From the sequence record PZ091942.1: 64,000 bases of DNA. The stretch is one strand, 5' to 3'. The translations under genes and the position numbers were made by a program. Shown in pieces: positions 36,413 through 39,354 of this stretch (positions are counted from its first letter, which is position 1; each line of letters starts with the position of its first letter). The notes beneath the pieces were generated by a model, which ran no database searches, was not told where the DNA came from, and worked only from the letters and a program-made list of their open reading frames with translations. This DNA is from a phage.

Positions 36413-36604
36413 ATGAAAGAGGAAAAAGCTACTTACTTAGCTGTTGGTTTTATAGTTGGGGCATTTGCTATGGGAGTATTTATATCTAACGTTGGTCCAG
36501 ATTCTAGCGTTAAGATTGAGACGAGAAGAGCTGCTTGTGAAATAAATCTCCCTCGTAGTCAGGTCTGTGTAATGCAGTTTGTCCCTAAATCGGTTGACAG
36601 ATAA
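36413..36604 (+). CDS. hypothetical small membrane protein
   Basis: ORF track; hydrophobic N-terminal helix. Confidence 0.45.
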   Translation: MKEEKATYLAVGFIVGAFAMGVFISNVGPDSSVKIETRRAACEINLPRSQVCVMQFVPKSVDR

Positions 36605-36618
36605 TGGAGTTTGGAACA

Positions 36619-36816
36619 ATGAAAAGACGTTGGGTAGTTCGTATTCACTGGAGTAGTGGTACAGAGTCAATGGGTATTAGGAATACCCGTCAAGAAGCTC
36701 GCGCTCATAAGAAGTTCTTGTTAAGTTGTGAAAGCACAATTAATAAGATCACTATCCACAAAGCTCAAGACTTTAAATCAGGTCGTTTCTATATCAGCGG
36801 AAAGGTACATTACTAA
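36619..36816 (+). CDS. hypothetical small protein, tandem paralog A
   Basis: ATG 36619 with GGAG SD inside track ORF 36604..36816; NTRQEARAHKK...ISGKVHY. Confidence 0.5.
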   Translation: MKRRWVVRIHWSSGTESMGIRNTRQEARAHKKFLLSCESTINKITIHKAQDFKSGRFYISGKVHY

Positions 36817-37031
36817 TGGATAAATTATGGGCAGTTCGTACTAAATGGGCTAACAAAGCTCTTGGTGGTGATTGTATTCAATTATTCAACACAAGACAAG
36901 AGGCTCGTCTTGCTAAGAAAACTATAAAAGCTACAAAAGCTTTAGGAATCGCTGAAAAGGTGGAGATTCATCGTTGGATTGAAAATATCCATAACAGTGC
37001 TGGATTCATATCCAGCAAGGTTTATTACTAG
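36816..37031 (+). CDS. hypothetical small protein, tandem paralog B
   Basis: ORF track; NTRQEARLAKK...ISSKVYY parallels upstream gene. Confidence 0.5.
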   Translation: MDKLWAVRTKWANKALGGDCIQLFNTRQEARLAKKTIKATKALGIAEKVEIHRWIENIHNSAGFISSKVYY

Positions 37032-37101
37032 TTGGTAGTAGATATGATAACTCTCAAATGTATATACAGTATAAGAATATTGTATGAAACAGGAGAGAGT
37101 T

Positions 37102-37431
37102 ATGTTAGATTTGAGTAAAGTGGCCCCGCCATCTGAAGAGATTAGCAAAGCTAAAGTTATGCAGCAGTTCTACCATCGGGATATGCTTGGTCGTTATATC
37201 AAGAATCGTGATGTTGTTGCATGGTCTATTGGAAATCAAGGTTATCTTCTCAAAGTGTTGCAAGTTACTGGCTCAACAGCCAAGCGTGTTAAGGTGTATG
37301 ACCCTGAAATGGGGCGTTCTAAGTCTGTAGACCCACAGAACTGCATCGTTATTACCCAGCAAGTAATGGATAATATTGAACGCAATGTAGCGAACTCAAC
37401 TAACTTAGAGGGAGAATCTCCAAATGCATAA
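37102..37431 (+). CDS. hypothetical protein
   Basis: ATG 37102 with AGGAGAGAG SD inside track ORF 37084..37431. Confidence 0.55.
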   Translation: MLDLSKVAPPSEEISKAKVMQQFYHRDMLGRYIKNRDVVAWSIGNQGYLLKVLQVTGSTAKRVKVYDPEMGRSKSVDPQNCIVITQQVMDNIERNVANSTNLEGESPNA

Positions 37432-37990
37432 TAATGTCTTCGACTTACCAGAACTGACACGAGTGGGTTCTAGCAACCCATTCTCTACAACTGACTCTTC
37501 TATCTCTCGTCTAGAGGGAATGAATAAACTGATCAGTGGTAACAGTCTAGAGCACATCCTATGCGGTGTGCAGGCTAACCTTGAGCTTCTACACATCAAA
37601 GCAAAGAATTATCACTGGAACGTCTCTGGAGCTGGTTTCCAAGGTGTTCATGGTATGTTCGATGAATTAGAAGACTATGCTCGTGAAACTGGTGATCGGG
37701 TAGCAGAGCGAATGCGTTATCACTGTATTAAAGTGGATGCAACAGCTAGTAGCTATCTTGGTTGTGCTTGGTTCCGAGAAGGTAACGCTGATCTCGACAT
37801 GGACGGTATGCTTTCCGACATGTGCATGACTCTTATGTGTATGATTGAGAAGATGGATGAGTTTGATTCAGACTTGTGCACCTATCCAGTAGACCAGAGT
37901 ATGCTTCAAGAAATTAATGAAGGTCTTGGCAAGTTCTGTTACTTCGTCAAGAGCAACATGTCCCACTCTAGTGGCGATGTGTCTTACTAA
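37424..37990 (+). CDS. Dps/ferritin-like protein
   Basis: ORF track; GAGGGAG SD; LQANLELLHIKAKNYHWNVSGAGFQGVHGMFDELEDY matches Dps signature. Confidence 0.55.
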   Translation: MHNNVFDLPELTRVGSSNPFSTTDSSISRLEGMNKLISGNSLEHILCGVQANLELLHIKAKNYHWNVSGAGFQGVHGMFDELEDYARETGDRVAERMRYHCIKVDATASSYLGCAWFREGNADLDMDGMLSDMCMTLMCMIEKMDEFDSDLCTYPVDQSMLQEINEGLGKFCYFVKSNMSHSSGDVSY

Positions 37991-38053
37991 TCAAACCTCC
38001 GCCCTGTCTCTTTGTTTAAGAGGTGGGGCGAACTTCTTTATAAGGATATGAAT

Positions 38054-38233
38054 ATGTTTTCAGCAATCGTATGGTCTGTGTGGGCAATTTTTGTTGGTGG
38101 TATCGTTTATCTGGCTCAGAAGCAGATGCTTAAAGAGAATCCAAATGATGCTAAACCTATTAAACATGGTAGCATTGCTCTGGTAGTTTTCTCTGTTGTC
38201 ATTCCTTTCCTTCTCCACCTGTTGACTGCATAA
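38054..38233 (+). CDS. small membrane protein, tandem paralog 1
   Basis: ATG 38054 with AAGGA SD inside track ORF 38012..38233 (TTG); two hydrophobic helices. Confidence 0.45.
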   Translation: MFSAIVWSVWAIFVGGIVYLAQKQMLKENPNDAKPIKHGSIALVVFSVVIPFLLHLLTA

Positions 38234-38242
38234 GGGTTTGAT

Positions 38243-38428
38243 ATGATTTCACTGATTGTGTGGGCCGTGTGGTCATTAATAGTTGGTACTGTTATATATA
38301 AAGCTCGAAATTTAGCAATTAAAGAAAACCCAGCAGAAGAGGATGTTAAAGCTATCAAGCTGGGTAGTGTTGTTCTGGTACATTTTGCTATAACACTACC
38401 TCTTGTTATTATTCTTTGTATGCTATAA
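38243..38428 (+). CDS. small membrane protein, tandem paralog 2
   Basis: ORF track; AAGGG SD; similar two-helix layout and KENP motif. Confidence 0.5.
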   Translation: MISLIVWAVWSLIVGTVIYKARNLAIKENPAEEDVKAIKLGSVVLVHFAITLPLVIILCML

Positions 38429-38618: not shown

Positions 38619-38897
38619 ATGAGTAAAGTAATTAAGTTTTATAGTAATTCATGTGCTCCATGTGCAGCTATGGCTCCTGTGTTTAAGAAGGTTGTAGCTG
38701 ATTACAACGTAGAGGTTGAAGAAGTAAATATCTCTGAAGGTGATGGTCGAGAGCGAGCCATTGAATACGGTGTTCGCAGTATCCCAGCCTTTGTTGTCCC
38801 TGACCGTAATAGTGGTGCACATTATAGTTTATCAGGTATGCAGACCGAAGCAAACCTGAAAGCATTTTTGGATACAGCTCTGAATGGTAATCGATGA
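38619..38897 (+). CDS. thioredoxin/glutaredoxin-like protein (CxxC)
   Basis: ATG 38619 with AAGGA SD inside track ORF 38565..38897; FYSNSCAPC active-site-like motif. Confidence 0.7.
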   Translation: MSKVIKFYSNSCAPCAAMAPVFKKVVADYNVEVEEVNISEGDGRERAIEYGVRSIPAFVVPDRNSGAHYSLSGMQTEANLKAFLDTALNGNR

Positions 38898-39354
38898 TTT
38901 AGAGTATATCCCCGAAACTGGAGAGTTCTTCCGAAATGGTAAGAAGTTAGGAGGAACTCGAAGTAAGTACATAACCCTACGGTTTAAAGGGAAGGTACAC
39001 AAAGCTCATAAAGTGGCATGGTTCTTTTATTATGGAGAATGGCCTTCTTCTCAGATAGATCATATCGACAGAAACAAGAAGAACAACTCAATACAGAACT
39101 TAAGACTGGTAGACACTTCGACAAACTGCCACAACCAGTTCGGGGCTAGAGTATCAAACAAGGAAACAGGGCTTCAAGGTGTTAAGGTTGTCAAATATAG
39201 ATCAGGGACTATTAGATATAGAGCTGTTATCTGTATTGATAAAGTAGACATACATCTAGGTATGTATGGCACTGCCGAAGAAGCCCATCAAGTTTACATG
39301 AATCGAAAAAAGGAACTTTTAATTGAACGAACAACTACAAGCAACACTGATTGA
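38884..39354 (+). CDS. HNH homing endonuclease
   Basis: ORF track; IDHIDRNKKNNSIQNLRL HNH motif; sits between trx-like and thyX-like genes. Confidence 0.7.
   Translation: MVIDDLEYIPETGEFFRNGKKLGGTRSKYITLRFKGKVHKAHKVAWFFYYGEWPSSQIDHIDRNKKNNSIQNLRLVDTSTNCHNQFGARVSNKETGLQGVKVVKYRSGTIRYRAVICIDKVDIHLGMYGTAEEAHQVYMNRKKELLIERTTTSNTD

Follow-up and report, generated by a model that had tools for sequence, protein, structure and literature searches.

The gene at positions 37424–37990 (+ strand) of the window, the 64,000-nucleotide stretch of phage sequence record PZ091942.1 analysed here, almost certainly encodes a member of the Dps family of mini-ferritins with a Dps fold. Judged by alignment, the protein carries an intact ferroxidase signature, and its gene follows the gp68 gene, to which it is translationally coupled, at the head of the middle operon. 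We consider the most likely role of the protein, and probably the right one by analogy with its relatives, to be that of a mini-ferritin that would sequester Fe(II) and consume peroxide during phage DNA replication. The window phage is a Suseptimavirus/Kuravirus-like E. coli podophage of the phiEco32 group and of virulent type. The Dps identity of the gene has been known in the literature and in databases since 2008, and near-identical proteins are in GenBank, so that the reading, though correct, is an unremarkable rediscovery of a gene that was already annotated. What we note anew is the acidic N-terminal extension without a basic tail, the coupling to gp68, the constant nucleotide-metabolism module around the pair and the mislabelling of the gene as an integrase.

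Gene and reading frame

The open reading frame begins with an ATG at 37424, encodes 188 amino acids and ends at 37990 with the stop codon included; it is the ortholog of phiEco32 gp67. A Shine–Dalgarno-like GAGGGAG (37408–37414, + strand) lies 9 nt before the ATG, within the 3′ end of the upstream gene, and a ribosome-binding site is annotated at the equivalent position in the SU7 record. We considered an internal start at M33, which would yield a Dps of classical size (156 aa), and rejected it: the start at 37424 has its Shine–Dalgarno-like sequence at a distance of 9 nt, the GAGGGA that precedes M33 directly abuts the M33 ATG, and the motif MHNNxFDLP at the extreme N-terminus is kept in homologs down to about 50% identity. 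The open reading frames that overlap the gene on the opposite strand are short (42–72 aa), and we found no support for them in the open reading frame listing. Measured against the SU7, Bas87 and phiEco32 orthologs, dN/dS is about 0.05 overall and 0.03 in the core. The gene is real and is under purifying selection.

The protein contains seven cysteines, none of them invariant, and the count among homologs ranges from 2 to 10. A functional role for these cysteines, conceivable given the thioredoxin neighbour, is unsupported, as no cysteine is invariant.

Family and fold

Ferritin (PF00210) is the sole Pfam family that matches the protein at E up to 10, with an E-value of 2.4e-7 and a score of 31.2 bits (gathering cut-off 24.5), the match covering residues 56–99 only (helices A and B). 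PHROG 3636, named 'DNA binding protein', matches residues 37–181 at E 1.3e-52. A phmmer search against all PDB sequences returned Dps proteins only, the best being M. smegmatis Dps2 at E ~2e-9. A phage-clade profile, which was built from 22 sequences and searched against PDB chains, matched B. anthracis Dlp-2 over nearly its full length at E 7e-19, S. aureus Dps at 2e-17 and E. coli Dps at ~5e-9 (entry 1f30) and 3.8e-8 (1dps). Besides Dlp-2, about 55 further Dps entries were matched, and full-length Dps chains gave E-values from 7e-19 to 1e-8.

The AlphaFold2 model, computed with the phage-clade alignment as input, has a mean pLDDT of 82.4 and exceeds 90 through the core. It contains four long helices (residues 42–66, 72–99, 126–146 and 155–177), a short BC helix (108–113) in the B–C loop and an extra N-terminal helix (26–38) with a pLDDT of ~60. 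There is no fifth (E) helix in the model, and beyond residue 177 just three residues are helical. The predicted topology is that of Dps, not ferritin. A Foldseek search of the PDB gave a Dps structure for each of its 50 best matches, at target TM-scores of 0.67–0.92 and rmsd of 1.1–1.6 Å over ~140 residues. A maxi-ferritin or bacterioferritin, which assembles as a 24-mer, was rejected on the lack of a fifth helix, on the inter-subunit ligand pattern of Dps type, and because the best sequence and fold matches are all Dps.

The window protein scores 34.8 bits against the NCBIfam Dps equivalog NF006975, whose cut-off is 114. The NCBIfam equivalog cut-offs are far out of reach, and we therefore take the C-terminal half and the pores to have diverged. 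Dps family members form hollow dodecamers of 23 symmetry in which iron enters through acidic three-fold pores. An acidic cluster, DEFDSD...PVDQ (residues 146–158), precedes helix D; its alignment to known pore residues is uncertain. Recent capture of a host dps gene was rejected, since identity to E. coli Dps is 19–21%, the equivalog cut-off is missed and the GC content of the gene (43.7%) equals that of the window (42.4%). Sequence comparison indicates an old, phage-resident Dps lineage that is not orthologous to enterobacterial Dps.

Ferroxidase centre

The motif KNYHWNVSGAGFQGVHGMFDELEDYARETGDRVAERM occupies residues 61–97 of the open reading frame. Within it, the ferroxidase-centre segment of helices A and B (37613–37708, + strand) holds H64, W65, H76, D80, D91 and E95, which align with E. 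coli Dps H51, W52, H63, D67, D78 and E82 at identical spacing. All six residues are invariant in an alignment of 23 sequences that includes E. coli Dps. In a 19-sequence alignment that reaches 30–40% identical homologs from other phage families, H64, W65, H76, D91 and E95 are again invariant, and D80 is replaced in two distant sequences.

An earlier note on this DNA, made from the letters alone, had read a Dps gene with a ferroxidase-region signature at 37424–37990 of a lytic phage, and had named a profile search and a four-helix-bundle prediction as checks. Our results bear this reading out: the 188-residue frame lies on the + strand at exactly that place, all ligands of the signature are conserved, PF00210 scores above its gathering cut-off and the clade profile reaches E 7e-19, the model shows a four-helix bundle plus the BC helix and has Dps for its 50 best structural matches, and the phage is a virulent-type relative of phiEco32.

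N-terminal extension and charge

Residues 1–45 (37424–37558, + strand) form a clade-specific N-terminal extension, recognised from the alignments, the AlphaFold2 model and charge counts. It consists of MHNNxFDLP, then a variable linker, then a helix with the pattern S-x-x-R-[LM]-[DE]-x-M (residues 26–38), in which R29 and M33 are nearly invariant. The extension, 45 residues long in the window protein, varies from 28 to 52 residues in the window's clade and evolves faster than the core (dN 0.33 vs 0.08).

The whole protein has a pI of 4.7. Its 45-residue N-tail has a net charge of −2 with three Lys/Arg residues and its C-tail a net charge of −1; the N-tails of all 21 close and intermediate homologs carry between −3 and 0. 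The 32-residue N-tail of E. coli Dps has a net charge of +2 with six Lys/Arg residues, and its first 22 residues have a pI of 10. Short basic N-tails are found in the homologs of Salmonella phage 7-11 (MLGARPKRP...) and Privateer (MARDMIRSRPSLRR...), with net charges of +2 and +3, respectively. Many cellular Dps proteins bind DNA non-specifically, and the Dps proteins of L. innocua and A. tumefaciens, which are without a mobile basic tail, do not bind DNA. The Lys/Arg-rich flexible tail by which the DNA-binding subset of Dps is recognised is absent from the window protein, and we therefore judge it unlikely that the Dps of the window's clade binds DNA directly on its own. The widespread product name 'DNA-binding protein' thus appears unsupported by the sequence for this clade.

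The gp68 partner and the gene neighbourhood

The gene upstream of the Dps gene is a homolog of gp68 (37102–37431, + strand; 109 aa). Its mechanical open reading frame starts at 37084, and the probable start at 37102 fits both the lengths of its homologs (106–111 aa) and an AGGAG ribosome-binding site. The end of this gene, stop codon included, shares 8 nt with the beginning of the Dps gene. The protein belongs to PHROG 10984 (function unknown), and neither Pfam nor NCBIfam gave a match. It is basic, with a pI of 8.8 (9.5 for the barrel core), and it is more conserved than Dps, with 70–97% identity over the same set of contigs. In the AlphaFold2 model, whose confidence is low (pLDDT 66), five strands form an SH3/Tudor-like barrel with flanking helices. 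A fold search with this model gave no significant match (best E 6e-3), the neighbours being Tudor, PWWP and SH3 domains. The gp68 product is accordingly predicted to be a small SH3/Tudor-like β-barrel.

The association of the two genes extends to distant phages. A gp68 homolog abuts or overlaps the Dps gene directly upstream in Privateer (39% identity), in LAh_8 (37%) and in a 100-kb metagenomic contig (L009); in 7-11 it lies five genes from the Dps gene in the same module. Just upstream of gp68 is a promoter-like sequence, AAATGTATATA (37056–37066, + strand), which matches the phiEco32/SU10 middle/late motif tAATGTATAtA at 10 of 11 positions. A promoter is annotated at the corresponding position in the SU7 record, and in SU10 the promoter upstream of CDS68 marks the beginning of the middle genes (PMC4281155). 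Terminator-like hairpins flank the gp68–Dps pair, one of them at 38000–38030 (+ strand; 13 pairs, 7 of them G–C, with a weak T-tract), 10 nt past the Dps stop. The number of such hairpins in the region does not exceed shuffle expectation, and for this reason we give them little weight.

We compared synteny among Kuravirus, Suseptimavirus, Grimontviridae, Lahexavirus and metagenomic relatives. In every lineage the Dps gene lies amid genes for dCTP deaminase, thioredoxin, ThyX, PhoH, primase/helicase and DNA polymerase. Genes of anaerobic-type ribonucleotide reduction also occur close by: a NrdD-like fragment immediately downstream of Dps in Privateer, NrdD and NrdG immediately upstream in LAh_8, and NrdD 2.5 kb downstream in L009. 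Bas87, the closest relative of the window phage, encodes no ribonucleotide reductase (RNR) and keeps the Dps gene. The window phage carries an inserted HNH endonuclease gene further downstream of Dps.

Distribution and annotation

At the DNA level the region shares 94–96% identity with Escherichia phages ECBP2, Bas87, IME267 and SU7, all of them Gordonclarkvirinae (SU7 in the genus Suseptimavirus), relatives of phiEco32 and Kuravirus and prolate podophages of the C3 morphotype. With the Dps protein as query, tblastn matched 134 out of 50,697 phage records. Identity is 80–99% in Kuravirus-like phages, 30–42% in Salmonella phages 7-11 and SE131, Cronobacter phages GAP52 and A24, Proteus phage Privateer and Aeromonas LAh phages, and 28% in two Synechococcus phages, S-SRM01 among them. 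An exhaustive HMMER scan of 1.84 billion cluster representatives retrieved just 12 clusters with an E-value of 1e-10 or better, and 487 with one of 1e-3 or better.

The phiEco32 GenBank entry of 2008 (EU330206) already describes gp67 (ABY52868.1) as 'DNA-binding protein; member of the Dps family'. In SU10, CDS67 'contains a DPS domain' and is among the few genes common to all five C3 phages then known; its product was found by mass spectrometry, through 6 peptides and at 35.8% coverage (PMC4281155). Dps is a conserved core gene of podophages of the C3 morphotype and is rare among phages overall. The description of the gene in the earlier note as unusual cargo holds for phages at large and overstates the case for this group, where every C3 podophage carries it and phiEco32 has it annotated. 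Our search of the literature for functional studies of phage Dps of the phiEco32 group found no biochemical or genetic test.

The gene carries the label 'integrase' in P0011 (IME267), ES17, MLP3 and other records, at least 14 of the 60 records listed bearing it. We rejected an integrase, which would have a tyrosine- or serine-recombinase catalytic domain, given that Pfam yields Ferritin alone at E up to 10 and that the fold is Dps; the label is an annotation error. The mislabel recurs in genomes of phage-therapy candidates, where it could wrongly flag strictly lytic phages as temperate.

Role in infection

The reality of the gene, its family and fold, the conservation of its ligands, purifying selection, synteny and the expression of the SU10 ortholog are directly supported. 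From these we infer an oligomeric state, a ferroxidase activity and a physiological role, as follows. The protein would be made from the head of the middle operon, alongside the genes of replication and dNTP synthesis. By analogy with solved Dps structures, it would form dimers with inter-subunit di-iron ferroxidase sites, one chain supplying H64, H76 and D80 and its partner D91 and E95, with W65 nearby. Since every solved Dps divides these invariant ligands over two chains, at least a dimer is expected, and by homology the dimers would most likely assemble into a hollow dodecamer. Fe(II) would be oxidised with H2O2, the oxidant that Dps proteins prefer, and stored as an Fe(III) mineral. Fenton chemistry would thereby be lowered at the time of phage DNA replication, when the dNTP supply, which depends on iron and redox reactions and would comprise host NrdAB together with phage thioredoxin, dCTP deaminase and ThyX, runs at full load. 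Hosts strongly induce their own dps and catalase in lytic infection, as reported for YerA41 (PMC7354516). Of what the earlier note offered, the side of iron and oxidative protection is, we believe, better supported than that of DNA compaction or nucleoid interference.

A plain antioxidant role leaves some features unaccounted for, namely the conserved N-terminal extension, the obligate-looking partner gp68 and the need of a phage for another Dps when E. coli has its own. In a more speculative reading, the cage of the Kuravirus/Suseptimavirus clade would have been repurposed beyond a generic antioxidant, with twelve conserved acidic extensions pointing outward and the coupled, highly conserved and basic gp68 forming with them a two-component system that targets an iron-handling nanocage; the target may be the replisome, the dNTP-synthesis machinery or DNA being packaged. 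We give this arrangement only a slim chance. Gp68 also enters into the proposal that the Dps protein binds or condenses DNA, be it by covering or compacting phage DNA during replication or ahead of packaging, or by upsetting the host nucleoid. The non-specific DNA binding of many cellular Dps proteins speaks for it, as do the basic N-tails (+2 and +3) of the Grimontviridae homologs in 7-11 and Privateer, and gp68, being basic and having PWWP and Tudor domains as weak fold neighbours, could supply the DNA binding; but the fold matches of gp68 are non-significant, the protein of the window's clade is acidic, with both tails negative and the N-tails of the 21 homologs negative or neutral, and Dps proteins that have no mobile basic tail, such as those of L. 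innocua and A. tumefaciens, do not bind DNA. In Privateer the homolog stayed with DNA-filled virions through CsCl purification (PMC7881722), a further point in favour of DNA binding. On balance we regard a DNA-binding role as unlikely, and the compaction of DNA or interference with the nucleoid that the earlier note had envisaged finds no support in the sequence (pI 4.7, tails of −2 and −1, no basic tail).

The same virion data bear on whether the protein travels in the prolate head, alongside or bound to the packaged DNA, where it would shield the genome, packaged or entering, or function soon after ejection. In Privateer virions that had passed CsCl step and equilibrium gradients, Dps was one of about ten virion-associated proteins seen by mass spectrometry (PMC7881722), the SU10 ortholog was present in PEG-concentrated phage (PMC4281155), and the tblastn results confine the family to C3 prolate-head phages. 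The SU10 sample, however, was deliberately prepared without CsCl purification and also contained DNA polymerase and thioredoxin; the virion and ejection proteins described from SU10 cryo-EM (gp20–24, gel bands) omit Dps, and the terms 'gp67' and 'DNA-binding' are absent from that report (PMC9509320). Moreover, the gene sits in the middle replication operon and not in the late structural operon, and a cage bound to DNA fragments, with a density between those of protein and DNA, could band together with phage. A place in the virion is in our estimate very unlikely. A further alternative is a cage that serves not primarily as an antioxidant but as an iron store or chaperone for iron-dependent dNTP synthesis, that is, for the host di-iron NrdB and, in relatives, for the Fe–S enzymes NrdD/NrdG of the phage. 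The strict synteny with nucleotide-metabolism genes points this way, as do the NrdD/NrdG genes near Dps in Privateer, LAh_8 and L009 and the phage thioredoxin, the reductant of class I RNR, that neighbours Dps in every lineage. Against it, Bas87 keeps its Dps gene without any RNR, synteny inside a replication module is weak functional evidence, and no Dps is known to act as a dedicated iron donor for RNR; its probability seems low to us. We thus favour Fe(II) sequestration and peroxide consumption by a mini-ferritin. With Dps being core to a whole morphotype of virulent phages and paired with an uncharacterised small protein, the system offers a tractable question on how phages manage iron and peroxide.

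Comparison with known systems

The closest counterparts are phiEco32 gp67 and its Kuravirus and Suseptimavirus orthologs (SU10 CDS67, SU7_66 and the proteins of ECBP2, KBNP1711 and Bas86–89), of which the window gene is itself an ortholog. Identity is 82% to phiEco32 gp67 and 96–99% to the proteins of KBNP1711, ECBP2, Bas88 and SU7 (98–99% for the first three). These orthologs share the length (187–188 aa), the N-terminal extension, the upstream gp68 and the position between the dCTP deaminase gene and the thioredoxin/ThyX genes. The window copy differs from them by a few substitutions and in nothing of substance. The homologs of Grimontviridae and Lahexavirus (7-11 gp073, Privateer gp068, GAP52 and LAh_8 gp125) are 30–42% identical, with E-values from 1e-12 to 1e-23. 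They have the same ferroxidase ligands, lie in the same replication/nucleotide-metabolism module and have a gp68 homolog, but they are shorter (146–156 aa) and lack the 45-residue acidic extension.

The cellular Dps proteins of known structure, among them M. smegmatis Dps2 (2z90, 4m35), B. anthracis Dlp-2 (1jig), S. aureus Dps (2d5k), B. subtilis MrgA (2chp), L. innocua Dps (1qgh) and E. coli Dps (1dps), resemble the window protein in the four-helix bundle with its BC helix, in the identical His/Trp/His/Asp/Asp/Glu spacing and in a similar core length. The window protein is 19–27% identical to them and has in addition the N-terminal helix and motif. Its tails are acidic, neither basic as in E. 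coli Dps nor absent, and it is the product of a virulent phage, with gp68 as its partner.

Other phage Dps proteins are those of L. plantarum myophages (PMC6669764), of 'Gratiaviridae' and gut phages (PMC8008677) and of Synechococcus phage S-SRM01, whose genes likewise lie near DNA-metabolism genes; a gp68 partner has not been reported for them. They are independent lineages; tblastn with the window protein did not retrieve the Lactobacillus and Bacteroides phage genes, and S-SRM01 is detectably homologous, at 28% identity. For the Dps of the Lactobacillus phages (PMC6669764) and of the gut phages (PMC8008677), protection against oxidative stress and iron has been proposed, the kind of role that we favour for the window protein.

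The gp68 homolog is a candidate partner of Dps

The gene for the homolog of phiEco32 gp68 (window 37102–37431, + strand) lies immediately 5′ of the Dps gene, overlaps it by 8 nt and is translationally coupled to it. Dps directly follows the gp68 homolog in Kuravirus-like phages, in Privateer, in LAh_8 and in one metagenomic contig, and the gp68 homolog is the better conserved of the two. The gp68 homolog is basic (pI 8.8) and is predicted by modelling to adopt an SH3/Tudor-like barrel fold; no known family was found for it in Pfam or NCBIfam. Functionally, it may act together with Dps.

Variable genes surround the gp68–Dps pair

The pair is flanked by small paralogous genes on the + strand, arranged as two tandem pairs, one of PHROG 4939 (window 36604–36816 and 36816–37031) and one of PHROG 9296 (window 38012–38233 and 38243–38428). 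From their sequences, the PHROG 9296 products look like small membrane proteins. Relatives vary in the copy number of these paralogs, and phiEco32 has a single gene of PHROG 9296 size where the window phage has two. Farther downstream, an HNH endonuclease gene (window 38884–39354, + strand; Pfam HNH_3, E = 1.6e-13) sits between the thioredoxin and ThyX genes and overlaps both, whereas in phiEco32 ThyX follows thioredoxin directly. In the closest relatives, the megablast matches stop at about window 38889, the start of the endonuclease gene. This gene is likely to be a mobile insertion of a homing endonuclease, variable from one relative to another.

Misannotation of the Dps gene and probable misannotation at a neighbouring position

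Among the matches listed, at least 14 of 60 phage records, including IME267, ES17, MLP3, vB_EcoP-101114UKE3, EcoN5, IMEP8 and YW01, name the Dps gene "integrase" or "putative integrase", as do NCBI/UniRef for the IME267 protein. We rejected an integrase identity for the gene at window 37424–37990, which has no recombinase domain; the name is an annotation error and could cause lytic phages to be wrongly marked as temperate. SU7_61 (SU7 record L006, 3798–4289), at the position equivalent to the HNH endonuclease gene, is annotated "baseplate wedge subunit", probably another such error in this phage group.

Comparison with the Grimontviridae Dps homologs

The Dps homologs of Privateer (locus L003, 3923–4387) and Salmonella phage 7-11 (locus L004, 3959–4399) lack the long acidic extension of the window clade, and their N-tails are instead short and Arg/Lys-rich, with net charges of +2 and +3. 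It is Privateer's version of Dps that was found in CsCl-purified virions (PMC7881722). Because their N-tails differ in this way, the two clades of this one phage Dps family may also differ in DNA binding.
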